The notes below the pieces were generated by a model. That model saw only the letters and a program-made list of their open reading frames with translations, was not told the DNA's origin and made no database searches. From positions 37,813 through 101,812 of the forward strand of contig DATNBH010000070.1 in the NCBI GenBank assembly GCA_035572035.1: a DNA stretch of 64,000 bases, read 5' to 3'. Made by a program: the position numbers and the translations under genes. Shown here piece after piece: positions 5,192 to 62,250 of the stretch (the first letter of the stretch is position 1; each line of letters opens with the position of its first letter). This DNA comes from Pyrinomonadaceae bacterium. GTDB taxonomy: Bacteria; Acidobacteriota; Blastocatellia; Pyrinomonadales; Pyrinomonadaceae.

Positions 5192-7075
5192 ATGACTTTA
5201 GGGAAGGTCTTAGTTCACCAATTAGAGAACCCAAATCTCTCATTCGACGACCGCGTTGAGTTGCGGTGCAAACTTGCTAGGACCTTGGAGGAGGAGGGTA
5301 AATACGATGCAGCTCGTGAGGCGATGCTAGAGGTCTGGCCTGAATTCGACGAGAGGCCTCAGGTTGAAGGATTGTCTGAACAAAGCAGGGCTGACACCTT
5401 AATACGAGTTGGTGCGCTGACTGGCTGGATTGGCAGTGCTAACCAACTCGATGGTGCCCAAGAAATCGCCAAAGATTTCATAAGTGAAGGAATACGATCA
5501 TTCGAACTGCTGAACGAGCCTATGAAAGTCGCTGAAGCACAAACAGAACTTGCTGTCTGCTATTGGCGCGCAGGAGCCTTTCAGGAAGCTAGAGTGATTT
5601 TGCATCAAGCCTTTGGTGTCCTTAAAGAATCGCACAGTGAGGCGAAACTGGTGACCTTGCTGCGAACGGCAATAAACGAGGAGTCGGCTGGTCGCTATCA
5701 TGATGCCTTGCGAATACAAAAAGAGGCGTCTCTATTATTTGAACAGACTCCGAATTTCACACTTAGAGGCAAATTTCATCACTTATTTGGCTTTATCCTC
5801 CGGAAACTTTCGGAAGTTGAGCTTCGCCGAGATTACATTGACCAAGCTCTGATCGAATACGCGGCTGCAAGTTACTACTTCGAGGAAGCCGGACTCATCC
5901 GTCATCGAGCTTGTGTGGAAAACAATCTCGGGTTTCTATTCGGAACGATCGGAAGGTTTGGCGACGCACATGAACACCTCGACCTCGCCCAAACACTTTT
6001 CACCAGTCTGAAGGACTCGGTGCACCTGGCGCAGGTGGATGAAACTCGGGCGCGAGTGTTGTTGGCGGAAGGGCGATTGGTTGAGGCGGAGAAGACTGTC
6101 AGGGCATCGGTACGCACGCTGGAAAAGGGCGATGAGCAGTCGCTGCTCGCAGAAGCGTTAACGACCCACGGAATCGCACAAGCACGATTGAAGCACCCTG
6201 ACCAGGCAAAGGTTAGTCTGCAACGAGCTCTTGATGTAGCAGAGCGAGCGGGAGATCTCGAAAGCGCCGGCAACGCTGCGCTCGTAATCGTCGAAGAGTT
6301 AATCGACTATGTTCCGAATGATGAACTCAAGCTCACTGTAGATCGAGCCTCTGAACTGCTCGCCAAAACGCAGGACCTGTCAGCGCTGAAACGGCTCGCA
6401 AACTGTTCAAATCGCGTCCTCGCTAAGGTGCATGCCTCACCTCGCTTTCCGGGAAAGGTCGATTGGACCAACTTTTCCTTCAGGGGAACATTACTGGAGT
6501 ACGAAGCTCACCTTATCAATCTTGCGCTTGAAGATGCAGGCGGAGTGGTTAGCAAAGCGGCGCGATTGTTGGGATTCAATCATCATCAGAGTTTGCTTTC
6601 GATGTTGAATGGACGACATGAAGTCCTTCGCCACCGCAGCACGCCAATTCTGCCACGGCGTCGCAGCATCATTCGCAGTGGCGAGAACGGCTCACCGCCT
6701 GGCAAACGCGGCCGCAAACGAACGCTCAGGATACTGCTTATCGAAGACGATGCTTCTGTCTCAAGTCTAATCCAGGAGAACATCGATGGCCTGGGCGCTG
6801 AGGTCGAGGAAATTGCAGATGGCGCGTCCGGGATGGAACTGCTAGCTTCAGGTGTCCATTTCGATCTGCTGGTTCTAAAAAATGAGATTCCCGGCGTGAG
6901 TGGAAAGAATCTTGCACGTCTCGCGCGCAGCTTATCTCAGTATCGAAAGACGCCCATAGTGGTGCTTTCGGCGAACGCTGACGATCAGATTCAATCTAAT
7001 GATTCAAATCTCTTTTGGCTGAGTAGCGAGGAACCTAACCGGATAACGGAGACTATTAACCAGATTTTTCATTGA
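5192..7075 (+). CDS. TPR-like helical repeat protein with Fis-type HTH and C-terminal receiver (REC) domain
   Basis: About 440 aa of alpha-helical TPR-like repeats, then an NtrC-C-terminus-like HTH (LEDAGGVVSKAARLLGFNHHQSLLSMLN), then REC (RILLIEDDASV...FDLLVLKNEIPGVSG...IVVLSANAD). Confidence 0.75.
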   Translation: MTLGKVLVHQLENPNLSFDDRVELRCKLARTLEEEGKYDAAREAMLEVWPEFDERPQVEGLSEQSRADTLIRVGALTGWIGSANQLDGAQEIAKDFISEGIRSFELLNEPMKVAEAQTELAVCYWRAGAFQEARVILHQAFGVLKESHSEAKLVTLLRTAINEESAGRYHDALRIQKEASLLFEQTPNFTLRGKFHHLFGFILRKLSEVELRRDYIDQALIEYAAASYYFEEAGLIRHRACVENNLGFLFGTIGRFGDAHEHLDLAQTLFTSLKDSVHLAQVDETRARVLLAEGRLVEAEKTVRASVRTLEKGDEQSLLAEALTTHGIAQARLKHPDQAKVSLQRALDVAERAGDLESAGNAALVIVEELIDYVPNDELKLTVDRASELLAKTQDLSALKRLANCSNRVLAKVHASPRFPGKVDWTNFSFRGTLLEYEAHLINLALEDAGGVVSKAARLLGFNHHQSLLSMLNGRHEVLRHRSTPILPRRRSIIRSGENGSPPGKRGRKRTLRILLIEDDASVSSLIQENIDGLGAEVEEIADGASGMELLASGVHFDLLVLKNEIPGVSGKNLARLARSLSQYRKTPIVVLSANADDQIQSNDSNLFWLSSEEPNRITETINQIFH

Positions 7076-7460
7076 TCGATAGGTCGTACATACAGTTCGA
7101 CGGCAAGGAAGTCGGTCTTTACCCCTCACACTGTGGTAGCTCACCGGGCGCACTGGCGGCGCCTCAGACACCACGAAACCACCAATAACTTGCGGCCAGC
7201 CGGGGCGAAAGTCTCTTTCGCTTAACGGTATCAGTGTCGGTGAAAGACACGCCGCTTTTGAGTAGTTCGGATGGAGCTCCAACTCGAGATGCACCGATAG
7301 CGAGCCGTGCATCTCTTGCGCTGGCACGTTCGTTTATGGTGGGAACGAATGCGCCGCGAAGCCGCCACGCAACTGAGCATTACGTGGCGCAGGGGACCGG
7401 CACAGGCCTCTCACCCGTGCCGGTCTTCCGAATCAGAATCTGGAAACGATGATTAGTTCT

Positions 7461-7510
7461 GATCTCAGATCTGAGATCTGAGATCGATGATCGATGATCG
7501 ATGATCGATA
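7461..7510. repeat. Tandem heptamer repeats (GATCTGA x3, GATCGAT x4)
   Basis: Seen directly in sequence. Confidence 0.6.
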
Positions 7511-17061: not shown

Positions 17062-17518
17062 CCTGCTCCTTTAATGAGCGCTTGACTTCTTATTGCATCC
17101 GTTCAGCAGTCGTGCCGGGCACTTTCGGCAAGATCGCAATTCGTCCCCGCCGAAAGCGAAGGCCGGGGTCAATTCAGCTATCGCTTCCGGCGGGGTACGA
17201 GGCAAGAGCGACCGGTTATGTTCTGTTGGTGGCCCAGCGAGTTCATCCATGCCGGGCGCGTTCACGCATTTCTTCCTTTGGCGATCCATGTTGCGAGTAA
17301 CGCTGAAAAATTGTGCGGCCATCAGGGCTTCGTGCGGATAACCCATTTTGAAGCTATTGCTTCCGGGCCGCGCCATTCCTATTTCAATTGATGTGCCGAA
17401 GACTTTAGGTCGCTGAAAAGCAGGATTTGCTCGCAGTTTGAGTGGTGTGACTGACGTCTGGCGATTCTTTAAGTCAGATTGATAAATCAGATTGAGGGTT
17501 CGGTCAGTTTGGTGAAGG

Positions 17519-17628: not shown

Positions 17629-18954
17629 TTGGGGAAATCAATCAAGAATCTTGAGGCGCGAGGTTCGGTCGGTTACATCGAGCTGCTGCGAAGCAACCCT
17701 GCCTTTCGTAATCTCTGGTTGGGCCAGGTCGTCAGTCAGATGGGTGACTGGTTCGACACCATCGCGCTTTACACCATCATTCTGAACCTCACCGGCTCGG
17801 GACGAAACGTCGGCCTTCTCATGGTCGCGCGCTTCGTGCCGAGTTTTGTGTTCGGCCCGGTGTCCGGTGTGATTGCGGACCGTTTCAGTCGCAAAACGAT
17901 CATGATTCTGTCCGATGTGCTGCGCGCTTTCGTCGTGCTTGGCTTTCTTTTTGTGCGCCGCCCGGATCAATTGTGGCTGATTTATGTTCTCACAGTGCTG
18001 CAACTGGTTTTTTCCACCTTCTTCGAGCCGGCCCGCACCGCCGCTGTGCCTTCGATTGTTTCCGAACGAGAATTGTTACCGGCTAACGCCATTTCGTCGG
18101 TTACGTGGTCGGCGATGTTGACGATTGGCGCTGCCATTGGCGGCGTGGTTACAGGTTGGTTCGGAACGAATGCCGCGTTCATTCTTGATTCGTTGTCATA
18201 CGTGTTGTCAGCCGTATTCATTGCGAGTATTCGTTTCCCCAAACGTCCTCCTCGAGTGAAGACAGAATTGACGGTTGGTAAGGTTCTGGGTGTTACCCAA
18301 ACATTGGAAGGCGCGCGTTACGTAAAGAATCGCCGGCGCGTGCTCGCATTTCTACTGGTGAAGCCCGCCTGGGGACTGGGCGGAGGCATCCTTACTCTCC
18401 TCGCAGTGTTTGGCGAAAAGATCTTCCCTGTCGGTCGCAGTACCGCTACCGGCATCGGAGTACTTTTCGCAGCGAGAGGGATTGGGACCGCAGTCGGCCC
18501 CATCGTGGCGCGGCGCATCGCCGGTGAGAGTCGCCAGCGAATGCAGTCAGCAATCGGGATTTCCTTTTTAATTGGAGGCGTGTTCTATATCCTGTTCGGG
18601 ACCAGCTCGAGTTTCCTGTTCGCGCTGCTGGTCCTTGGCGTTGCGCATACGGGCGGTAGTATCCTTTGGGTGTTCTCAACGGTGCTGTTACAGCGTGACG
18701 TGGAGGATGGGTTCCGTGGGCGAGTATTCGCTGCCGAACTGGCGCTGTTGACTTTGACGATGGCTGCTTCGAACTATGTGACTGGCGAGCTGCTTGATCG
18801 CTGGCACTTGTCGCCGAGATGGGTGACAGCCGGCATAGGTATTTTCTTTATCATTCCAGGAATCTTATGGTTCATTACGGAAAGATGGTGGGATAGAGGA
18901 CAAGCCAGTGTTGAGCCGGCAGTGGCGGTCGATCAAAAGCTCGAAACTATTTAG
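17629..18954 (+). CDS. MFS transporter (EntS/enterobactin-exporter-like family)
   Basis: 12 predicted TM segments; MFS motifs; TTG start. Confidence 0.8.
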   Translation: MGKSIKNLEARGSVGYIELLRSNPAFRNLWLGQVVSQMGDWFDTIALYTIILNLTGSGRNVGLLMVARFVPSFVFGPVSGVIADRFSRKTIMILSDVLRAFVVLGFLFVRRPDQLWLIYVLTVLQLVFSTFFEPARTAAVPSIVSERELLPANAISSVTWSAMLTIGAAIGGVVTGWFGTNAAFILDSLSYVLSAVFIASIRFPKRPPRVKTELTVGKVLGVTQTLEGARYVKNRRRVLAFLLVKPAWGLGGGILTLLAVFGEKIFPVGRSTATGIGVLFAARGIGTAVGPIVARRIAGESRQRMQSAIGISFLIGGVFYILFGTSSSFLFALLVLGVAHTGGSILWVFSTVLLQRDVEDGFRGRVFAAELALLTLTMAASNYVTGELLDRWHLSPRWVTAGIGIFFIIPGILWFITERWWDRGQASVEPAVAVDQKLETI

Positions 18955-19050
18955 GTCTTTGGTCTTTGGTAAATACGAAAACCGGTTCAGATTTAGAAAG
19001 TCAACGCTTAGTTACCTCGCTACAAAGACCAAAGGCCCAAGACCAAAACC
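18954..19050. repeat. Palindromic element, family C (TCTTTGGTCTTTGG...CCAAAGGCCCAAGACCAAAA)
   Basis: Inverted CTTTG-rich arms. Related copies at 38443-38542, 39644-39668, 53572-53680, 62152-62250; octamer variant at 19600-19648. Confidence 0.6.
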
Positions 19051-21080: not shown

Positions 21081-21390
21081 CAGTGCGCCAAGAAAAGGTA
21101 GGTAAGGCAAAAATGGTGAACTGAAGCCGTAGCCGATACCACAGGCTGGCCCTGTGGTGTTTCATGTTCACCGCTACAAAAACAGGCTGATCCATCGGTT
21201 CGCAAGAGGCTGCGGGCTCGCCCCGTGGTGTTTCACGGTTGCCGCTGCCGCCAACCTGAAGCCTGAACACTCCACGGGACGAGCCCGTGGCATCACCGAA
21301 AATCTCGGCCCGCCTCTGTTAGCGACCAACGTGAGTGACCACGGCGCCAGGCCGTGGCCTCAGTTTTAGCGACTACCTACTTTTTCTTGC
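21081..21390. mobile_element. MITE-like element, family D: 310 bp with terminal inverted repeats CAAGAAAAGGTAGGTAG and internal CCACGG..CCGTGG hairpins
   Basis: Left end GCGCCAAGAAAAGGTAGGTAAGG and right end AGCGACTACCTACTTTTTCTTG are inverted. Partial copies at 39224-39352 (inverted, about 85 bp near-identical) and 48994-49062. Confidence 0.6.
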
Positions 21391-21439
21391 CGTACTGGTT
21401 TCGACGCGTGAGGCGGCACGTGCGTCTCGCGCGTGATAC

Positions 21440-29952: not shown

Positions 29953-30098
29953 TTTGGAGTGCGCCGACCTGTCGGCGCTTTGTTCCGTGGCGGCTTGACG
30001 CTACCCGGTTCTGTAATGTCGGCCATTTTTCGCAGGATCAGCTGCGACAGGTCGCAGCGGCCAAAGCGACGACAGGTCGTCGCACTCCAAATTAGTGC
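29953..30098. mobile_element. MITE-like element, family G (TIR TTGGAGTGCGCCGACCTGTCG)
   Basis: Inverted ends. A second copy at 51433-51575 shares about 60 bp of near-identity. Confidence 0.55.
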
Positions 30099-38442: not shown

Positions 38443-38542
38443 ACGTTCTTGGTTCTTTGTACTTTGTTTGTCTCGGGACAGCTGATTTTGCACTCAAGTT
38501 TCCGAAGAAGAACAAAGAACTAAGTACAAAGAACCAAGAACA
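38443..38542. repeat. Palindromic element, family C
   Basis: GGTTCTTTGTACTTTG ... CAAAGAACTAAGTACAAAGAACC. Confidence 0.6.
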
Positions 38543-39193: not shown

Positions 39194-39700
39194 TGCAAGC
39201 TGCTAGCCTGCAGTTTGTCCCCCAGTGCGCCAAGAAAAAGTAGGTAGTCGCTAAAACTGCCAAAACTGAGGCCACGGCCTGGCGCCGTGGTCACTCACGT
39301 TGGTCGCTAACAGAGGCGGGCCGAGCTTTTTGGTGATGCCACGGGCTCGTCCAGCTTTGCCCGAAAAGTCTTAAATCCCACCTGCGGCAGCTGGTGGTTA
39401 CTTCAGGTCCAGCCTACCAACCTTTTATGTCGTTGTTATTCAATCCCACCTGCGGCAGCAGGTGGATGGTTCAAGTCCTGCCTATTTCCGTTGAAAACTT
39501 GCAAGCGAGGCTGCACTTGAAACATCCCTCAGCTGCCGCTGAGGGGATTCAAAGGACCAATCCCAACCTCTCTTGGTAGGTCGAAATTGAACTATCCACC
39601 AGCTGCCGCAGGTGGGATTTAAGACTTTTCGGGCAAAGCTGCTCTAAGACCAAAGTCCAAAGACCACTTCTTACATCGGTGGAATCTGCGTAATCGCCGG
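39194..39700. repeat. Composite repeat hotspot: families B, D (partial MITE), E (palindromic CCCACCTGCGGCAGCTGGTGGG units x4 in both orientations), C and F
   Basis: Seen directly; 500 bp intergenic with no ORF. Confidence 0.6.
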
Positions 39701-40582: not shown

Positions 40583-40596
40583 GACTGTAAAGATCA

Positions 40597-40796
40597 TCCG
40601 CAGATTACGCAGATTTCACAGATGTTTTGTTGAGTGACAATTCACGCTGACGAGGAATTGTCTCGCCCATCTTTGGAATCTGCGGTGTACCGAGATGCTT
40701 GCCAAGCCGGTAACTCGAACTACACAGATCGGTAATTCATGAGTCAACCGACCCGTGACTCAACAAAACATCTGTGGAATCTGCGTAATCTGCGGA
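40597..40796. mobile_element. MITE-like element, family F with about 40-bp TIRs (CCGCAGATTACGCAGATTTCACAGATGTTTTGTTGAGTGAC)
   Basis: Perfectly inverted ends. Related copies at 46010-46143 and 39676-39699. Confidence 0.6.
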
Positions 40797-40804
40797 TAAG
40801 TTTT

Positions 40805-42244
40805 TCAATCGCTAATCTGAAGAGAATTCATGATGCGGTTAATCGCTTCCTGAAATTCAGCAGATTCATTCTGCGGCACAACTGTCGAGATAAAGAGCAC
40901 GTTGCCGTTACTCAGTTGCGTGGCAAAAAGCGCGATGTCCTCCTGCACATTTGTTGCTTCGTTTCTGTTTCTGAAGCGAGTAGACAACCAGTAACGTCGA
41001 CCGGTATTACTGCCCACCACGCGACCAATTTGGCGCATGTTACGATTGCCTTGCAGCCAGTTGTTGACCATCTCATTCATCGTCTGCTGCAGGTTGCGAT
41101 CCTGTGGCCCAATCGCGAAGTTAATGCCGTGCGTGAAAACGGCTTGACCTTGAACACTGCCGTAGCCGCCTTCCGGAACAAACCACACGGAATTGCCATC
41201 CTTTAATTCAGCCCAGTTATCCGGCGCACTCATTCGCAAGACTCCCAACTCAGTGAAGTTGCGGTAGCGCGTTGACGGCCGGGAAACGGTTCCGGTCGGA
41301 GCGTTGTTTGGGTAGCTAGTGCGGCCCGTTTCGGGATTACGAGTATCGCCTTCGACAGGATAGCGTTGGCCGTTACGAGCGATCTCGGAAGTCGACTGAG
41401 CGCGCGGCGAGCCTCGAAGACGCGACTGGACTCTTTCAAACTCGCGCGTGCTCTTGATGGGATTGCTGACGCGCAGGTACTGGGCTTCCTGGTTAATGCG
41501 CGCGTAGCGATCTTTTGGACTCGGGTGATCGCTGAAGAAGCCGCCACCGCCGCCGCCACTCACGCGTTCAATTGTGCGAAACATATTCGCCAGGTCCTGT
41601 GGGTCATAATTAGCGCGCGCCATGATCTGGGCCCCGAGGATGTCCGCTTCTGTCTCGTACTCGCGACTAAATTTTAGAAAATACACACCAACGCTCTGTG
41701 CGCCAATCTGTGCGGCTGTCCCAATCGGACCGCCGAGAACCGCGCCGCCAATACCAAGAATGTTGGCGAACAATCCATATTTTTGTGCTTTGGTAGCCTG
41801 CGCCGTTCCATGTCGAAGAGCGACATGGCTCAACTCGTGGGCCATCACGCCTGCCATCTCGCCCTCGTTACGCGCCGCTTCAATCATGCCGCGATTGAGG
41901 TACATCGGCCCTCCGGGTAAGGCAAACGCGTTGATGTCGCTGGCGTTGACGATCTTGAAGTAGTAGCTGAATTCGGGATGTTGAAATTCCGCGGGGATTG
42001 CAGCAACCAAGCGACGACCAACGTCGCCCACATAATCGGTTGCTTCCCGATCGCGCAAGATGGGCATCTGCCTCTCAGCCTCCTGGGCAGCCTGACGGCC
42101 CAGTTTGACGTCGTCCTCGAGCTTAAACTTATTACTGTGATAAGTAATCTTTGTTTGTGAAAATGCGGACAGCGGCACCAGGACAATCGACGCAAGTGCC
42201 AGCCAGGCGATCACTGCTCGCCTTCGGTAGGAATTCTTATCCAT
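40805..42244 (-). CDS. Secreted M48-family zinc metalloprotease
   Basis: HELSHVALRH HExxH motif; signal peptide; GGAGG RBS at the shortened start. Confidence 0.8.
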   Translation of the reverse strand: MDKNSYRRRAVIAWLALASIVLVPLSAFSQTKITYHSNKFKLEDDVKLGRQAAQEAERQMPILRDREATDYVGDVGRRLVAAIPAEFQHPEFSYYFKIVNASDINAFALPGGPMYLNRGMIEAARNEGEMAGVMAHELSHVALRHGTAQATKAQKYGLFANILGIGGAVLGGPIGTAAQIGAQSVGVYFLKFSREYETEADILGAQIMARANYDPQDLANMFRTIERVSGGGGGGFFSDHPSPKDRYARINQEAQYLRVSNPIKSTREFERVQSRLRGSPRAQSTSEIARNGQRYPVEGDTRNPETGRTSYPNNAPTGTVSRPSTRYRNFTELGVLRMSAPDNWAELKDGNSVWFVPEGGYGSVQGQAVFTHGINFAIGPQDRNLQQTMNEMVNNWLQGNRNMRQIGRVVGSNTGRRYWLSTRFRNRNEATNVQEDIALFATQLSNGNVLFISTVVPQNESAEFQEAINRIMNSLQISD

Positions 42245-43564: not shown

Positions 43565-45922
43565 TTATGTCGTTAATGTTTTAGCAAAATCTTGAAGCCT
43601 CGTTCTGGCACCTTCGTTGATGTGAGGATGGTCGGTTGAAGGTAGTAACACTTCATCATTAAGTGTCTGGAAGTCAATACCAATCCAAGGTGCCACAGGA
43701 CCGTTTGTTGAGAGCCACTGAAGGTATTCCAGTCTTTCTAGCCGATGGATGAGAATTGGTAGGGACTCAATGTCCTGCCCTCGTAATGTACAAGTGGTTT
43801 GAAACTTCATGAAGAAGTTCGCAAAATCGCCACGGGTGAGTTTCTTCTGCTCTTTGACTTCAATAATTAGCAGCGCCGGTTTCCCGGTTTCCATCTCAAG
43901 GCCTTCAATAATAATGTCTGGGGTCTTATCTGACTTTACTGCTGCTTGGCTGAAACCCGTGATCTTGTGTTGCCAGTCAATTTGATATTCCGAATTTGAA
44001 GGGATGACCTTGGGGCTATCCATAAGCGCGATCAGTCTCTTTATAGGGAATGTGCCAAGGCCGTGAGTCTCATACGGATTGAGTAACCATAACAAGAGCA
44101 ATTCGAGATCTCTTCCTCGAATTACTCGAATACTTAGCTCCTGCAGCTGCTTTGCATCGACTTCGCCGGGTGCATCGATCATCAAATCGGCTGCCGAAGC
44201 AGTCTTGGGAAATGCAATTACGTCTCGCATGTTATCGGTTCCGGCCAAAACCATCATAAGCCGATCGATGCCCGGGGCGATGCCGCCATGCGGCGGAGTT
44301 CCAAACGCCAAAGCGTCCATGAAAAACCCAAACCTTTGACGCGCTTCTTCGAGCGTCATTCCCAACGCTTTGAAAACCAAACGCTGGACGTCCTGCCGGT
44401 GAATTCGGATGGAACCACTCGCCATTTCGACACCATTGATCACCGGGTCATAGGCTTTCGTTCGAATCGTTCCGAGTAGATTCGTTTCGCCGCCATCAAC
44501 GGCGCGCGAAAGCAGCTCGACGTCTTCATCCACCGGTGAGGTGAAGGGATGATGCATTGAATAGAACCGCCCGTCCTCCTCGTGATATTCAAACATCGGG
44601 AAATCCGTCACCCAGAGTGGGGCGTATAAGTTTTCCTTAATAAGTTTTTCGCGCTTCGCTATTTCGTTCCGTAACGCACCAAGACTGGCCGTAACGACCT
44701 TTGCTTTTCCCGCTACGATCAAAACAGCGTCGCCGTTCTGAGCGCCGGCGGTCGCAGCCATCTGAGCAACAACGTCGGCGCCAAGCGCTTTTAGCAAAGA
44801 TGAAGTCACCTCATCTCCTAGTTTGATCCAGGCAAGCGCACCGGCGCCGTAACGTTTCGCGAACTCCTGAAGATCATCGAGCACCTTTCGCGACATTCCC
44901 GCTCCGTTGCGTACCACCAGCGCCTTAATACTGCCTTTGCCTTCGAGCACGGCTGCGTAAGGCGCAAAGGTTGTTTGCGCAACCGGACCGGAAACATCCT
45001 TGAGCTCCATGCCCTCGATGCGTAAGTCGGGCTTGTCTGATCCAAAACGGTCCATCACTTCAGCGAAGCTAAATCTTGGAAACGGCACGGGCAGGTTGAC
45101 ATCGATCAAACGAAAGACACGAGCGAACAATCCTTCGATCAGCGAGTAGATTTGCTCGAGAGTGGCGAAACTCATCTCTACGTCGAGTTGAGTGAATTCC
45201 GGTTGCCGGTCGGCTCGCAAATCTTCATCTCGAAAGCAGCGCGCGATCTGAAAGTATTTGTCCAGACCGGCGATCATGCACAGCTGTTTGAAAAGCTGCG
45301 GAGACTGGGGCAAGGCAAAAAACTTTCCGGGTTGAACTCGTGCCGGAACGATATAGTCTCGGGCGCCTTCCGGCGTTGACTTAATCAACACCGGCGTTTC
45401 GATCTCAGTAAAGCCGCGCTCGGTCATGTAACTGCGAATCTCGGTGAGCACGCGATGACGCAAACGCAGATTTGCTTGGAGCTGTGGCCGCCGCAAGTCA
45501 AGATAACGATATTTCAGCCGCAGATCCTCGCTTGCCAGTCCTTCCGAACCTGCAGTTTCGAGCTGAAATGGAAGTGTGCGAGCATCGTTCAAAATCAGCA
45601 GCTCACTTGCGCGCACTTCGACATCACCAGTCTGTAGTTTCGGATTGCGTGAACTCTCGTCCCGCAAAACCACGCTGCCGGTCACCGCAATAACGTATTC
45701 GCCTCTAACATCTTTTGCTTTTCCGTGCGCATCACCGGTTTCTTCTGCGTTGAAGACAACTTGAGTGATGCCGTCGCGGTCTCGCAAATCAAAAAACGTG
45801 AGCACGCCAAAGTCTCGACGGCGAGCCACCCAGCCCATCAGCGTCACGGTCTCGCCAACATTTTCTTTCCGCAGAGCGCCACAAGAATGCGTGCGCTCCA
45901 AATTTCCAAGGTTATCCAACAT
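43565..45922 (-). CDS. aspS: Aspartyl-tRNA synthetase with in-frame roughly 184-aa low-GC C-terminal extension
   Basis: Class II aaRS body including motif 3 GGIAPGIDRLMMVLAG...AFPKT. Instead of terminating after ELSIRVI, the frame continues through 43565-44116. The extension carries PD...EVK and is about 43% GC. Confidence 0.8.
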   Translation of the reverse strand: MLDNLGNLERTHSCGALRKENVGETVTLMGWVARRRDFGVLTFFDLRDRDGITQVVFNAEETGDAHGKAKDVRGEYVIAVTGSVVLRDESSRNPKLQTGDVEVRASELLILNDARTLPFQLETAGSEGLASEDLRLKYRYLDLRRPQLQANLRLRHRVLTEIRSYMTERGFTEIETPVLIKSTPEGARDYIVPARVQPGKFFALPQSPQLFKQLCMIAGLDKYFQIARCFRDEDLRADRQPEFTQLDVEMSFATLEQIYSLIEGLFARVFRLIDVNLPVPFPRFSFAEVMDRFGSDKPDLRIEGMELKDVSGPVAQTTFAPYAAVLEGKGSIKALVVRNGAGMSRKVLDDLQEFAKRYGAGALAWIKLGDEVTSSLLKALGADVVAQMAATAGAQNGDAVLIVAGKAKVVTASLGALRNEIAKREKLIKENLYAPLWVTDFPMFEYHEEDGRFYSMHHPFTSPVDEDVELLSRAVDGGETNLLGTIRTKAYDPVINGVEMASGSIRIHRQDVQRLVFKALGMTLEEARQRFGFFMDALAFGTPPHGGIAPGIDRLMMVLAGTDNMRDVIAFPKTASAADLMIDAPGEVDAKQLQELSIRVIRGRDLELLLLWLLNPYETHGLGTFPIKRLIALMDSPKVIPSNSEYQIDWQHKITGFSQAAVKSDKTPDIIIEGLEMETGKPALLIIEVKEQKKLTRGDFANFFMKFQTTCTLRGQDIESLPILIHRLERLEYLQWLSTNGPVAPWIGIDFQTLNDEVLLPSTDHPHINEGARTRLQDFAKTLTT

Positions 45923-46153: not shown

Positions 46154-46534
46154 TTAGGCGGCTTCTTGAGCTATTTCGAGGAGGTTGCCGGCGGGATCGC
46201 GAACGTAGAATCGGGGCGAGCCCGGGATAGGTAGACTGTCCGGAATAATCTCAATGCCTGCAGCGCGAAAATTCTGTTCAGCTTCGTTAAGGCTCCGGAC
46301 TGAGTAACAAACATGTCGTTTGGATCCAGTGTTGTCAGGAGCAGGGTTTTCACGCGAAAGATGCAGCTGAACAGCGCCGAGTTGATACCAGGCGCCGCCA
46401 CGACCCTTCGACTCCGGAGGCTTCGGCACTTCTATTAGTCCCATCACTACACCATAGAAGTGCTTAGTATCCTCTTCCAACTCCGTCGCGCAGGTGACGT
46501 TTACGTGCGCAAGTTTTACGACACTTACAGTCAT
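46154..46534 (-). CDS. VOC/glyoxalase-family protein
   Basis: Beta-alpha-beta-beta-beta module; HVxV....E pattern. Confidence 0.7.
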   Translation of the reverse strand: MTVSVVKLAHVNVTCATELEEDTKHFYGVVMGLIEVPKPPESKGRGGAWYQLGAVQLHLSRENPAPDNTGSKRHVCYSVRSLNEAEQNFRAAGIEIIPDSLPIPGSPRFYVRDPAGNLLEIAQEAA

Positions 46535-46536
46535 GG

Positions 46537-46595
46537 TTCAGCAATCAGCAATCAGCAATCAGTAATCAGTAATCAGTAATCAGTAATCAGTAATC
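46537..46595. repeat. Tandem heptamer repeat (AATCAGC x3 / AATCAGT x5) filling the whole intergenic space
   Basis: Lies immediately 5' of the VOC gene ATG. The same heptamer recurs at 53745-53780. Confidence 0.7.
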
Positions 46596-48589
46596 TAACG
46601 CAGGATCATTAACGCTTGTTCTGCGGTTGCGCCTTGGGGGTCTTCCTTCTTCATTTGCAGATAAAGATCTCGCAAAGCCAATCGAGCCCCAGTGCGTGAT
46701 AGTTGATCGAGGCTGCTGAGGTCGCGACGATCAATATTAACTTTCATGCGCCACAAACGGATAGCATCAGCTGTAGCGCCATTCTGGGCTGCGCTGGTTG
46801 CGACTCTCCCTAAATCGTACGACAAGCGCGTCCAGGACAAGTCCCGGTTGTTGAGTAACAACTGTTCCGCCTCTCGCCATCTACCTTTCGCACAGTATGC
46901 CTCACTCAAATTTCGCAGAACTCCCGCGCGATCGACGTAATCGTGATTAGCTCCGCTCTTGAGGTACGCCAGCAGTAACGGCGTTGCTCTTTCTAAAGCA
47001 CCTCGAAAGACCATTGCTTCCGACAGGCGATACGCTCGCAACGATCCGGGATTATTGACTAGTTTCTCGAGCGCACTCCAGACCGAATCTTTTTCAGTAT
47101 CGGTTATCTCGTCGCCTCTGACGATGTCTTCGATCAAAGCTTCTTCTTCGTTGCCCCACTCTGACCGGCCGGCAAGCACTCGCGCAGTAATGGTCGGTTG
47201 TGAAACGAACAAGGTTCGGCGAAGTTCATCAAGCTCAAACTCGTCGTCAGCAATCAGTCGCGCAACCGCAAACGCATAAGTTGATTCTGGTTCCACTCGC
47301 TTGAACTCATTTCGCAGCATCGTTTCGAGGTCGCCTCGCGATTCGTGCCTGTCCGAGTTCTCCTTCAGGAAAAAGGCGAACGATCTCACTATTTCTACTC
47401 GCCCGGAATAAGCACCGTCATTAGTGTTGATTGGCGCCGCCGCAAGGGCTTTAAGGTATGTGTCCTTTTCGAGATCGGAGTCTTTTCGACCTCGATAATA
47501 AGCAGCCCGCTCAAGCCAATATTGTGCTGTTTGATGTTTCGTAGCCTCGTTAACAAGGATGTTTCTTTCCACAACTCGCTGCCCTGACTGCAGCTGCACG
47601 TTTCCTGCCAGCTGATGCACATCTTGAGAAAGAATGTGCGGGTCGACTTTCAGCGCCACTAACTCTTCGATCAATGGTTGTGCGTCGCGCGGACGTTTCA
47701 GCTTTTGATAGGCCTCCGCTAAAAGTTGCCTGGTCCAAAAGCGCAGTTGCTTTTCTGAATCGAGCTTCGCGAGCGCGATTGCGACTCGTAGACTCTCATG
47801 CACCAACGCATCGTCTCTTTCCGTAAACGGAATTGATAATGATTTCTCGAGAAATTTTGCGGCGGCGCCAGGTGACGCCTGGCCAAGCACATGGCCAAGC
47901 TCATAGTTCTCAAAAGCTCCTGAAGGTTTGGCGACATCTGCGAGCCAGGAAACGTCTTCAAGGTTCCGGGCTGCGTTATTAGCTCGCAGGTATCGTCTAA
48001 TGAAATCGCGGTCCTGGGGATTGGTTCGTATCGCAGTCTTTATTGGTTCAAGCAGTTCCCCCGCCGTTCCTAAACCCGCGCGTCGATACAATCGCTGCCA
48101 GAACCACTCATCATCCCCGTTCGAATGCTTCGCGAGCCAGGAATCGAGTTCTTTCTTGTCGCCGTCTTGATCCCACAAACGAATAAAGCTCTCAGCACCG
48201 TCAGTGTCTTGTGGGCATAATTCTTCGTAGTAGTAACGGCGGGCTGCGAGGTCGTTCGCGATTGATAATCTGATTTTTGAAAGAACGTCATAAGATTGAC
48301 TGGCTGACGGCCAGTCGGAAGCGTGCTTAAGTTGCTCCAGGGTTTTGAGTACGCCATCCCGACGGTCGGCTCGCGTATAGAGAATCAGTCGGCGTAGTAA
48401 AGGCACAACAGTCGCCGGACTATCATCCTCGAGTTGATTGACAATCTTACCGAGATCTTCTTTGAGGAGGAGCGTGACGACGTCACGTTCAATCGCTTGG
48501 ATCGCAGTGGAATCGATGCGCTGCTGGGATCGGCTCGAAACCGAAAACGGGAGGCAAAGCAGAATCGAAGCGATAAGGAACTTTCCCAT
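46595..48589 (-). CDS. Hypothetical secreted all-helical (TPR-like) protein
   Basis: Start placed at MGKFLIASILLCLPFSVS (signal peptide); the Arg/Cys-rich upstream extension is discarded. Confidence 0.55.
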   Translation of the reverse strand: MGKFLIASILLCLPFSVSSRSQQRIDSTAIQAIERDVVTLLLKEDLGKIVNQLEDDSPATVVPLLRRLILYTRADRRDGVLKTLEQLKHASDWPSASQSYDVLSKIRLSIANDLAARRYYYEELCPQDTDGAESFIRLWDQDGDKKELDSWLAKHSNGDDEWFWQRLYRRAGLGTAGELLEPIKTAIRTNPQDRDFIRRYLRANNAARNLEDVSWLADVAKPSGAFENYELGHVLGQASPGAAAKFLEKSLSIPFTERDDALVHESLRVAIALAKLDSEKQLRFWTRQLLAEAYQKLKRPRDAQPLIEELVALKVDPHILSQDVHQLAGNVQLQSGQRVVERNILVNEATKHQTAQYWLERAAYYRGRKDSDLEKDTYLKALAAAPINTNDGAYSGRVEIVRSFAFFLKENSDRHESRGDLETMLRNEFKRVEPESTYAFAVARLIADDEFELDELRRTLFVSQPTITARVLAGRSEWGNEEEALIEDIVRGDEITDTEKDSVWSALEKLVNNPGSLRAYRLSEAMVFRGALERATPLLLAYLKSGANHDYVDRAGVLRNLSEAYCAKGRWREAEQLLLNNRDLSWTRLSYDLGRVATSAAQNGATADAIRLWRMKVNIDRRDLSSLDQLSRTGARLALRDLYLQMKKEDPQGATAEQALMILR

Positions 48590-49066: not shown

Positions 49067-49681
49067 TTATTGCCCTTGCCTTTCCGACCGGGCAAACTCT
49101 GCGACCTCATCGAGCTGCTGTTCAATAGTCATTTCGTGACCAGGCCTCGTGACCAGATATGCATTGAATTCTGCGGACCGATTACGCGGCACGCTAATGG
49201 TTTGCCATTGGGCTGATCGAAAGTGCTTCGCCAGAAAAACTATTTGTCCGACGTGGTAAGCGTAATGAGTCAGCTGACGATTTATGGCCGCGATGATCGA
49301 GTGTTCCTGTCCGCGAATGCGAATCTTCTTTTCAAAGTCCGACGGTTGCAGTGGCTCCAGCGCACTGAACACGCAGGCCCAGCCCCGCTCCCAATACTCG
49401 TGCAAATTCTCTTTCGTCGTTCCGACGTCAATCACAAACTCGGAATCTCGGTTGCGGTCAGGTTTTTCGCCATCGCTGGTGAGAAAATCAGTCCACCGCG
49501 AAATCGAGTTGCCCGAGATGTGCTTCATGATTACTGCAACGCTGTTCGATTCTTCGTCCAGGGTCAGAAAGTATTCCCCTGCGTCCAGCTGCGCGAGCGC
49601 CTTCTCGGCCATCTTCTTATAAGCCCGAAAAGTCGAAATCGCGTTCGCCAGGTACTCAGTTGCAAATGAGTCGCTCATTGA
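49067..49681 (-). CDS. DinB/YfiT-like (DUF1572-type) four-helix-bundle protein
   Basis: H..H..H metal-ligand pattern (HEYW..., HYAYHVGQ); start at MSDSFATEY. Confidence 0.55.
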   Translation of the reverse strand, partial: SMSDSFATEYLANAISTFRAYKKMAEKALAQLDAGEYFLTLDEESNSVAVIMKHISGNSISRWTDFLTSDGEKPDRNRDSEFVIDVGTTKENLHEYWERGWACVFSALEPLQPSDFEKKIRIRGQEHSIIAAINRQLTHYAYHVGQIVFLAKHFRSAQWQTISVPRNRSAEFNAYLVTRPGHEMTIEQQLDEVAEFARSERQGQ

Positions 49682-49930
49682 CTTTATCAGCCTGCGAAGC
49701 GGGACTTTATCAGCCTGCGAAGCGGGCGGCAGCATAAAGCCTGGGGCGTGAGCCCCAGGGACCTAACGAGATTGATAAGCGAGCCCGTGAAACGGGCGGC
49801 AGCCGTCTCATCGAGGAGGTTGCGGCAATGCACTTCGTGAACTGTCGCCCGCTCCGCGGGTTAGGGCCTTGATTTGTTGTGCTCCCTGGGGCTCACGCCC
49901 CAGTCTTTATGCTGCCGCCTGCTCCGCAGG
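49678..49930. mobile_element. MITE-like element, family H (about 35-bp TIR GGCAGCATAAAGCCTGGGGCGTGAGCCCCAGGGA; internal direct repeat GACTTTATCAGCCTGCGAAGCGGG x2)
   Basis: Seen directly; fills the hisS 3' intergenic. Confidence 0.55.
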
Positions 49931-49933
49931 CTT

Positions 49934-53571: not shown

Positions 53572-53680
53572 AGGTCTTTGGTCTTGGGTTTTTGGTCTTT
53601 GGTTTTGTTCTTTGTGTTTGGTGCCTGGTTCTTTGCGCTTGGTGCTTGGTTCTTTGTGCTTGGTGCTTGGTGAGTGGCTG
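53572..53680. repeat. Family C CTTTG-rich tandem/palindromic repeat
   Basis: GGTCTTTGGTCTTGG...GGTGCTTGGTTCTTTG x3. Confidence 0.6.
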
Positions 53681-53744
53681 GTCAGAGTGTGGTCACGATG
53701 AAGTCTTTTGTATGAAAGCGTCTGGACATTTTTCGAGTAAGATG

Positions 53745-53780
53745 CGCAATCAGCAATCAGCAATCAGCAATCAGCAATCA
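53745..53780. repeat. Tandem heptamer (AATCAGC)x5 abutting the folK start codon
   Basis: Ends 1 nt before the ATG at 53782. Confidence 0.7.
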
Positions 53781-53781
53781 C

Positions 53782-54300
53782 ATGGTGCCTACAAGCGAGA
53801 ATGCTTTTGTGAGTTTGGGATCGAATCTCGGCGACCGCGCGGGAAACTTGATTCTTGCTGTTAGAGGAATAATGGACAGTGGTATGCACGTCGCGCGTTT
53901 GTCTTCTATTTATGAAACCGAGCCGGTCGAGACTTTTCCGCAACCTAACTTTTTGAATATGGTGGCTGAATTAACGGCGGACGGATTGCCCGAACCAGAG
54001 CAGCTTTTGGCCCGACTCCTTCGCGTTGAATACAGCTTAGGACGAACTCGTGAGGCGCCTAATGGTCCGCGAACTATCGATCTTGACCTGTTGTTTTACG
54101 GTGACAAGGTGCGAACGACCGAATTTCTCACGCTACCTCATCCTCGACTAGCTCGACGTCGCTTCGTACTCGAGCCGATGTCCGAGCTCGCACCGAAGCT
54201 GGTTCATCCTACGCTGCAGAAGACGATCGAAGAGTTGTTATCGGAGATCGGAGATGATTCGCAAGTTCGATTATGGAAACCCGCTACGAATCTGGCGTAG
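53782..54300 (+). CDS. folK: 2-amino-4-hydroxy-6-hydroxymethyldihydropteridine diphosphokinase
   Basis: AFVSLGSNLGD...YETEPV...RTIDLDLLFYGD. Confidence 0.85.
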   Translation: MVPTSENAFVSLGSNLGDRAGNLILAVRGIMDSGMHVARLSSIYETEPVETFPQPNFLNMVAELTADGLPEPEQLLARLLRVEYSLGRTREAPNGPRTIDLDLLFYGDKVRTTEFLTLPHPRLARRRFVLEPMSELAPKLVHPTLQKTIEELLSEIGDDSQVRLWKPATNLA

Positions 54301-62125: not shown

Positions 62126-62151
62126 CCGTAACTTGACGCTTCTGAGTTCTT

Positions 62152-62250
62152 TGTTCTTGGTTCTTTGTTCTTTGATTCCTTATCCTCATTGAACCTCGTT
62201 CGTTTGACATGACTCAAAACAAAGAACAAAGCACAAAGAACCAGGAACAT
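62152..62250. repeat. Family C palindrome overlapping the 5' end of the next gene
   Basis: GTTCTTTGTTCTTGGTTCTTTG ... CAAAGAACAAAGCACAAAGAACC. Confidence 0.6.

Follow-up and report, generated by a model that had tools for sequence, protein, structure and literature searches.

Why should two unrelated genes of an acidobacterium carry the same short tandem repeat against their start codons, and what, if anything, does the repeat do there? The question arises from a 64,000-nt stretch of DNA, called the window below, whose own coordinates are used throughout. An earlier note had seen AATCAGC-type heptamers abutting two starts in this window and had read them as a substrate for slipped-strand phase variation of translation initiation. 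The window is part of the 129-kb Pyrinomonadaceae (Acidobacteriota) metagenome contig ENA ERZ27256652 k141_3802178, and both contigs were assembled with k=141, longer than either array, so that the copy number seen in the assembly reflects the dominant haplotype. Two Logan contigs from SRR6185312 (L002 and L210) are 100% identical to the window. The break of L002 inside the array was considered as a sign of heterogeneity and rejected: a 35-nt perfect repeat exceeds the k of 31, so the break is expected of any repeat above the assembler's k. The HisRS of the window reaches at most 73-77% identity to Pyrinomonadaceae/Acidobacteriota reference MAGs, and among the genome and metagenome loci compared, folK and the VOC gene stand in synteny around HisRS in three metagenome loci only (L084, L085 and L100).

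The first array separates two co-directional genes of the minus strand. A TPR gene of 664 aa (46595-48589) ends in a TAG stop codon at 46595-46597; at the adjoining base begin eight heptamers (46539-46594), which read (ATTACTG)5(ATTGCTG)3 in the sense of the downstream mRNA and (CAGCAAT)3(CAGTAAT)5 on the plus strand. The downstream gene, of the VOC/glyoxalase fold (126 aa, 46154-46534; its homolog P0001 is a 99% match), has its ATG at 46532-46534, and the whole coding strand of the junction reads TAG (ATTACTG)5 (ATTGCTG)3 AACC ATG. Repeat accounts for 56 of the 60 nt that separate the TPR stop from the VOC ATG, and the eight units described in this gap were confirmed. The distance to the ATG, previously given as 2 nt, depends on the register chosen: it is 4 nt (AACC) in the register used here and 3 nt by TRF, which places the array at 46538-46595 with period 7, 8.3 copies, 98% matches and a score of 95. 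In VOC mRNA sense the eight units contain TGA in all three frames.

The second array lies on the plus strand, where five perfect units, (GCAATCA)5 or equivalently (AATCAGC)4.7, occupy 53746-53780 (TRF 5.0 copies, 100% matches). A single C separates them from the ATG at 53782 of folK (HPPK, PF01288; 172 aa, 53782-54300), in agreement with the five units said to end 1 nt before this start. An ortholog alignment backs the start (MVPTSENAF in the window, MPSNENAF in L085), and an NCBI entry whose name assigns it to a Pyrinomonadaceae MAG matches the window FolK at 100% identity. The array is open in all three frames in folK sense. A potential uORF of 40 codons (MRNQQSAISNQQSH...; 53742-53864, plus strand) could open with an ATG 4 nt before the array, run through it and overlap the folK start out of frame; its use is hypothetical. 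The divergent intergenic region that holds the folK array also holds about 100 nt of G/T-rich heptamer arrays built of GGTCTTT, CTTGGTG and GTTCTTT units (53573-53672, plus strand), which show no complementarity to the AATCAGC array.

Neither array can be put down to chance. A two-unit pattern gives 15 matches in place of 1.4 expected, and none of 100 shuffles reached 15 or more. Both arrays also have the properties that define long heptanucleotide simple sequence repeats (SSRs), with head-to-tail copies beyond chance, an over-represented unit length of 7 and a location outside coding sequence. The claim that one heptamer abuts two start codons therefore stands as far as the arrays themselves are concerned, with a correction that had been stated only by half: relative to their downstream genes, the two arrays have opposite orientations. 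The folK mRNA would read AAUCAGC and the VOC mRNA AUUACUG/AUUGCUG. Since the two genes receive different RNA sequences, the suggestion that the repeat itself may be the leader is excluded in the sense of one shared RNA element.

The absence of an SD-like motif from both starts, part of the original argument, was confirmed. Such motifs (GGAG, GAGG or AGGA) precede about 17% of the gene starts in the window against 13% in the background, start codons being approximate, and SD-less starts are for that reason unremarkable here. A search around the folK array found no sigma-70-like promoter, with the proviso that acidobacterial promoters may differ from the consensus used, and a sigma-70 promoter with array-altered spacing was rejected on that ground. 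No Rfam match was found at either array site, and upstream of folK none appeared even at E<=1; a known RNA such as a riboswitch was rejected for that region as well. The two window leaders fold no better than shuffled sequences (z +0.76 and -0.72), and the 252-nt region upstream of folK folds worse than its shuffles (z +2.0). Within the window, neither array has a complementary (inverted) partner, and no gene with a cold-shock domain was found.

Unstructured, SD-less leaders recall a model proposed for another heptamer. Direct repeats of TAACTGA occur in marine Beggiatoaceae, cyanobacteria and Bacteroidetes (MacGregor 2015, PMC4679880), in 2 to tens of copies, almost wholly intergenic and accompanied by other heptamers; in the largest class the repeat stops 1 nt short of a start codon without a ribosome-binding site (PMC4679880). 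In forward orientation these repeats carry stops in all frames, their reverse is translatable, and 7-nt indels distinguish Cyanothece strains (PMC4679880). In the BOGUAY genome, forward TAACTGA repeats mostly end within a few nt of starts without a ribosome-binding site, and there is one indirect repeat (PMC4679880). Transferred to the window, the model would have the arrays take the place of the SD sequence: the ribosome would be recruited either by the array alone or by way of an RNA-binding protein of the OB-fold type, such as S1 or a protein with cold-shock domains, that sets one domain on every 7 nt or so, with slippage tuning the number of sites. We hold this to be unlikely, and rank it first among the rivals of the reading preferred below.

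Several likenesses speak for such a leader. In VOC sense the array can be written (TTACTGA)5(TTGCTGA)3, with units that differ from TAACTGA at one or two positions, and its orientation is the forward one of the start-adjacent repeats of BOGUAY. This array has TGA in all frames, stands 4 nt from an ATG and lacks an SD motif. Both leaders are predicted to be unstructured, and arrays are retained at the same two gene starts across genera. Bacillus subtilis CspB, moreover, binds heptamers with one protein per unit and an optimum of GTCTTTG/T (PMC1904285), a sequence embedded in the GGTCTTT arrays that neighbour the folK repeat. Against the model, the two genes obtain complementary and not identical RNA, the folK array being reverse (AATCAGC in folK sense) and open; a candidate binding protein was not found. 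Nor is the unit TAACTGA. The host here is an acidobacterium, and inverted pairs of arrays, nearly absent in BOGUAY, are common in it. The two arrays belong to the general class of heptanucleotide SSRs and not to the TAACTGA family.

The proposal of slipped-strand phase variation has two parts, and comparison of relatives at the TPR/VOC junction bears on both. In L084 the junction reads TAA CCAATC ATG, a 6-nt gap with 0 units. L085 has two units, TAG ATTGCTG ATTGCTT ATTGGACCAGACT ATG; L207 has about three of a one-base variant, TAG A CTGATAG CTGATAG CTGAATT ATG; L206 and L208 have six each, as (ATTGCTG)4(ATTGCTT)2 and (ATTGCTG)6. Including the window, the series is thus 0, 2, about 3, 6, 6 and 8 units. 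The junction of TPR stop and array is conserved in L085, L206, L207 and L208, and the array stands alone in each of the five VOC orthologs that carry one. L085 and L206, which carry 2 and 6 units, are 99.4% identical over 375 nt of coding sequence in VOC and 630 nt in TPR; L208 is 97.6% identical to both in the flanking CDS. These three strains of a sister species, with 2, 6 and 6 units of differing internal composition, display copy-number polymorphism at strain level in 7-nt steps. The arrays do behave as if prone to slippage, as had been supposed, and the objection that unit number might prove invariant across strains falls. Identity of the window lineage to the sister species is only about 75% for VOC and about 67% for TPR coding sequence, yet nearly the same unit occupies the same junction.

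The second part, a switch, fares differently. A contingency locus would use gain and loss of units to toggle VOC or folK, through the frame of the ATG at 53742 or through promoter spacing. The variation in unit number among the sister-species strains agrees with this, and the uORF opened by that ATG would come into frame with folK after the loss of one unit or the gain of two. A precedent exists in Haemophilus influenzae, where slippage in an ATCTTTC SSR in the 5' UTR of hmw1A and hmw2A changes copy number and modulates expression (PMC12721329, PMC8262952), giving phase-variable expression of hmw1A (PMC12721329). However, both window arrays lie wholly outside annotated ORFs, so that unit changes can shift neither frame, the ATG at 53742 is absent from the folK orthologs examined, and the search around the folK array gave no flanking promoter hexamers. 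The hmw system encodes an adhesin of a host-adapted pathogen and involves at least 11 units and a long hairpin with a G-rich arm that is cleaved by RNase III (PMC12721329, PMC8262952). Its repeat is a heptamer SSR lying between promoter and start; here there are 5-8 units and no hairpin (z values as above), and hence no G-rich arm of the kind on which the hmw mechanism depends. The genes concerned are also of another sort, folK and the VOC enzyme gene being housekeeping genes and not surface or restriction-modification genes. An ON/OFF switch is very improbable, and the least likely of the readings considered, given arrays that lie outside ORFs, genes with housekeeping roles and a host that lives free in soil. 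A phase-variable start-codon device governing two such genes would be unusual if true; the evidence does not support it.

Among the tandem repeats of the window, period 7 in fact predominates. A strict detector found seven such arrays, against 0-1 for each of periods 5, 6 and 8-12, and TRF about 13; every one that reaches three copies is intergenic. Adjacent arrays (GATCTGA)3 and (GATCGAT)4 occupy 7458-7509 (plus strand) in a long intergenic region. A large GKTCTTK family is present as well, usually found as inverted pairs that cover entire intergenic gaps. One pair, (GGTCTTT)n ... (AAAGACC)n at 18951-19047 (plus strand; arms at 18951 and 19023), takes up the whole gap between two co-directional genes. 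A second, (GTTCTTK)n ... (MAAGAAC)n at 38445-38541 (minus strand; arms at 38445 and 38518), likewise takes up a whole gap of 114 nt between co-directional genes, and its arms match even in their variant units, being 96% complementary over 24 nt. In a third, (GTTCTTT)n ... (CAAAGAA)n at 62146-62248 (plus strand; arms at 62146 and 62217), the second arm overlaps the called start of ORF 62209. Two further inverted pairs follow in the next 10 kb of the contig beyond the window. Such arrays are patchy among relatives: they are present in L004, L013, L016, L017, L020, L084, L085, L100, L206-L208, L211 and L212, and absent from most other Pyrinomonadaceae loci examined. The earlier note had itself allowed that the motif might be a common intergenic filler unrelated to gene starts, and this is largely what was found, period-7 arrays filling many gaps in the genome.

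The region upstream of folK follows the same architecture in relatives. In L085 an inverted pair, (GTGCTTG GTTCTTG ...)/(CAAGAAC ...), stops 13 nt short of the ATG. The L211 region combines some 12 ACTTTGT/GCTTTGT units with some 12 CAAAGCA units, and the CAAAGCA array stops 14 nt short of the ATG; L212 has GTCTTTG and CAAAGAC arms. In L100, (AATCAGC)4 ... (ATTGCTG)2 AATACTG ... ATTACTG ends 15 nt before the ATG, so that its folK-proximal arm is in the orientation opposite to that of the window's array; this AATCAGC...ATTGCTG pair folds far better than its shuffles (z -3.8). L084 has no arrays upstream of folK. A two-armed pair is thus common to L085, L211, L212 and L100, and every array-bearing relative examined has a heptamer array beside the folK ATG, with neither unit nor orientation conserved. 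The G/T-rich arrays at 53573-53672 of the window are the counterpart of the distal arm of these pairs. The window region upstream of folK is therefore chimeric, with a distal arm of the GKTCTTK family and a proximal arm of AATCAGC that are mutually non-complementary. In the pairs of the window, of the next 10 kb and of the relatives' folK regions alike, the GTTCTTK arm always stands 5' of the CAAAGAM arm.

These pairs suggest another function, in which the inverted arms would form a long RNA hairpin or DNA cruciform serving as mRNA stabiliser, processing site, terminator or attenuator, in the manner of REP/BIME elements or of the hmw 5'-UTR hairpin; the two window arrays would in that case be arms that have decayed or lost their partner. 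REP elements are scattered copies of one conserved palindrome and are not built of tandem heptamers. The clade's paired arrays resemble REP/BIME elements as abundant, hairpin-forming intercistronic fillers, whereas the two AATCAGC arrays are solo and unstructured. Inverted pairs being a common architecture of the clade, the match of arms down to variant units, the strong folding of the L100 pair and the conservation of a pair upstream of folK in four relatives all speak for this reading. Yet neither window array has a partner, the folK upstream region folds poorly, and the VOC array is alone in its gap, as it is in all of its orthologs that have one. We rank the hairpin next after the leader and consider it unlikely. 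If the hairpins are functional, these arrays become non-functional remnants, and the hairpin reading merges with the preferred one.

Whether AATCAGY arrays seek out start codons was addressed by a scan of public metagenomes with the pattern (AATCAGY)3AATCAG, that is, about four or more units, which returned at least 120 loci on contigs of 38-66% GC. Contexts were taken from mechanical ORF calls with the array masked, on mixed metagenome contigs. Among the 120 matches listed, 23 arrays lie between a stop and a START in gene sense and 25 in antisense, 16 lie between two stops, 10 between two STARTs and 9 inside long ORFs, and 37 have one flank only. In the 48 co-directional gaps among these matches, the arrays split evenly, 24 lying nearer the START and 24 nearer the stop. 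The idea that the arrays are tied to start codons finds no support in orientation, in stop-stop gaps or in proximity: among these matches the AATCAGY family is orientation-neutral and not start-codon specific. For these matches, drawn from mixed contigs, a preference for start-proximal or forward-oriented positions of the TAACTGA kind is not seen. The same contigs, among the matches listed, hold 246 period-7 arrays against 13-22 for each of periods 5, 6 and 8.

An orientation-dependent positional bias did appear at first sight: read as AATCAGY, the arrays among the matches listed lay closer to the gene at their 5' side in 45-49 cases against 18-24 (p 0.0002-0.006). It was rejected because inverted partners account for the signal: solo AATCAGY arrays among these matches have no positional bias (22 vs 16, p 0.42). 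An inverted partner within 400 nt accompanies 30 of the 69 AATCAGY gap arrays among the matches listed, on the 3' side in 22 and on the 5' side in 8, a polarity that lends the hairpin further support. Start-proximal arrays of other units are mostly A+C-rich in mRNA sense (6/6 and 22/30), which could be taken in favour of a leader; this composition bias was set aside as support, being weak in other units and absent for the AATCAGY family. Against the leader also stands the neutrality of AATCAGY in orientation and position among the 120 matches listed, with arrays common in convergent gaps that have no leader, together with the inversion of the folK-proximal arm between the window and L100 and a folK-adjacent unit that differs completely between relatives. 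The 16 stop-stop gaps among the matches listed also count against phase variation.

Taken with the turnover at the TPR/VOC junction, these observations lead us to see the two arrays as probably unexceptional representatives of a population of hypermutable heptanucleotide repeats found between genes across the lineage, with an effect on expression that is at most quantitative. Length change, intergenic location and lack of start specificity are direct observations. Slippage as the mechanism, and the absence of a dedicated function, are what we infer from them. Two-copy seeds may expand by slippage, the seed being represented by L085 and expanded arrays by L206, L208 and the window; the 7-nt steps of length change are consistent with slipped-strand mispairing. 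The arrays would be tolerated only between ORFs, where a length change that is not a multiple of three does no harm. They come to lie flush with start and stop codons because, in short spacers, an array makes up most or all of the spacer. The same unit presumably recurs at the two sites since AATCAGY/RCTGATT is one of the few unit families that have been amplified, and its amplification would be a tendency of this lineage and of many environmental bacteria, with no shared start-codon function. The folK array would hold the start-proximal place in the two-armed heptamer architecture, in the window as a solo arm without partner. Any effect on expression would depend on how long the unstructured SD-less leader or intercistronic spacer is, and on its base composition, and would be quantitative, not ON/OFF.

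Pure neutrality does not explain everything. It leaves aside the persistence of the TPR/VOC array at about 75% VOC and 67% TPR identity, the presence of an array beside folK in all array-bearing relatives examined, and the fixed polarity of paired arrays (3' partner 22, 5' partner 8 among the matches listed). Either some selection or a strong self-perpetuation by slippage is needed, because unconstrained spacers are expected to randomise at such divergence. Since the conserved junction, the folK-adjacent arrays and the pair polarity exceed what pure neutrality would give, the functional rivals stay alive. A wider version would unite the solo arrays and fixed-polarity pairs of this Pyrinomonadaceae sub-lineage in one selected, position-conserved intergenic system. 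The arrays would be ladders of binding sites for OB-fold proteins (of cold-shock-domain or S1 type, one domain to each 7 nt) that stand in for SD-guided initiation or govern intercistronic hairpins, and 7-nt slippage would tune their strength as a genome-wide "heptad rheostat"; to this we give little credence. Pair polarity and the match of GTCTTTG to the optimal CspB heptamer nevertheless make up a concrete functional lead.

Membership in the heptanucleotide SSR class places the arrays in wide company. Heptanucleotides are the most abundant class of long SSR in bacteria, according to the accounts of Mrazek 2007 given in PMC4679880 and PMC4692102. GGGAATC heptamers of Xanthomonas and GGGGAYT heptamers of Nostoc (Rehm et al. 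2015, PMC4692102) are intergenic and phylogenetically sporadic, and polymerase slippage has been proposed as their cause (PMC4692102). In two species of Xanthomonas, GGGAATC repeats sit in corresponding gene gaps but vary extensively in length and sequence, and some of them form inverted pairs (PMC4692102). Those units are G-rich and capable of forming G-quadruplexes, whereas AATCAGC is not and is predicted to be unstructured. Heptanucleotides of Calothrix PCC7601 are among the cases cited in PMC4692102.

In the arrays described here, as in the cyanobacterial STRR (short tandemly repeated repetitive) heptamers, several heptamer families share a genome, are non-coding and vary in copy number, while phylum and units differ. 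Mazel and co-workers reportedly described STRR heptamers from Calothrix, Nostoc and Anabaena in 1990. A full-text literature search turned up no paper in which Acidobacteria, heptamer, intergenic and repeats occur together, and the present arrays extend heptanucleotide intergenic repeats to the Acidobacteriota. The series of 0, 2, about 3, 6, 6 and 8 units at one junction might be used as a marker and as a test case for why a unit length of 7 is favoured.

The arrays have also left a trace in protein databases. At least eight database homologs of FolK carry N-terminal extensions, for example STKHKAQSTKLKAQ or KDQRPETKDQ, which are translated CAAAGAM arrays. They amount to an annotation artefact, in which arrays open in all frames are rendered as false FolK N-termini in public databases.

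Inverted pairs of GKTCTTK and MAAGAMC heptamer arrays fill whole intergenic gaps at window positions 18951-19047, 38445-38541 and 62146-62248, as well as at positions 17303-17415 and 18723-18861 of the locus L209. In all the pairs seen (three in the window and two in L209), the mRNA-sense unit is CAAAGAM in the arm beside the downstream start codon and GTTCTTK in the arm nearer the stop. The agreement between the arms can extend to variant units (96% over 24 nt).

At 62209-62250 on the forward strand of the window, the called start of an ORF falls within a heptamer arm, so that its N-terminus reads MTQNKEQSTKNQEH; the explanation is either translation of the array or a miscall of the true start. 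In the public entries of the FolK homologs P0126, P0135, P0137, P0172, P0188, P0195, P0198 and P0225, the N-terminus is falsely extended by a stretch rich in K, Q, T and S, where heptamer arrays open in all frames have been translated. This is a systematic annotation artefact of start codons in this family.

Period-7 repeats are also frequent in the outgroups. Across 868 kb of Flavobacterium and other Bacteroidota loci (L033-L083), period 7 is the commonest class of non-tetramer tandem repeats, with 35 arrays against 5-15 for each of the periods 5, 6 and 8. This excess is consistent with the general excess of heptamer simple sequence repeats already published.

The unit GGTCTTT, found at window positions 53573-53622 and 18954-18970 and at 100-130 of the related locus L212, contains GTCTTTG, published as the optimal heptamer for binding of the Bacillus subtilis protein CspB (PMC1904285). 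This match may be a coincidence or may point to a binding protein. Within the window there is no cold-shock-domain gene.

The aspartyl-tRNA synthetase ORF (window 43565-45922, reverse strand) encodes 785 aa, against 603 aa in the orthologs of the related loci L084 and L085. Its C-terminal extension of about 180 aa has no Pfam match and may derive from an ORF that was fused or inserted. The sole Rfam match of the window, located between the DinB-family gene and hisS, is an Acido-Lenti-1 sRNA (49712-49759, reverse strand; 37.8 bits for a gathering score of 37). It overlaps a tandem duplication of 23 bp whose copies are identical (49680-49725), and also one arm of an inverted repeat of 91 nt (49712-49802 and 49842-49932). 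In L085, a Y1-transposase gene (PF01797, IS200/RAYT-like) is located between hisS and the DinB-family gene (6256-6702); none is present at the corresponding position of the window.

Other repeats are scattered over the window. The motif GGTGGAATCTGCGTAATC is common to sites at 39675, 40770 and 46120, with inverted copies at 40595 and 46008; the VOC gene (46154-46534, reverse strand) thus has a repeat on its 3' side too. Two MITE-like elements have long terminal inverted repeats, of 69 nt at 90% (39352-39641) and of 56 nt at 88% (40583-40810). A repeat of about 130 nt occupies two distant sites in inverted orientation (21277-21398 and 39222-39352), its copies being similar over 94 nt at 97% and 38 nt at 95%. 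The REP-like palindrome ACAGGCTGGCAGCCTGT is found in four copies at gene ends (17552, 20461, 39725 and 62910), and a REP-like double-palindrome unit of 59 nt has direct copies at 30041 and 51516 and inverted copies at 29953 and 51428.
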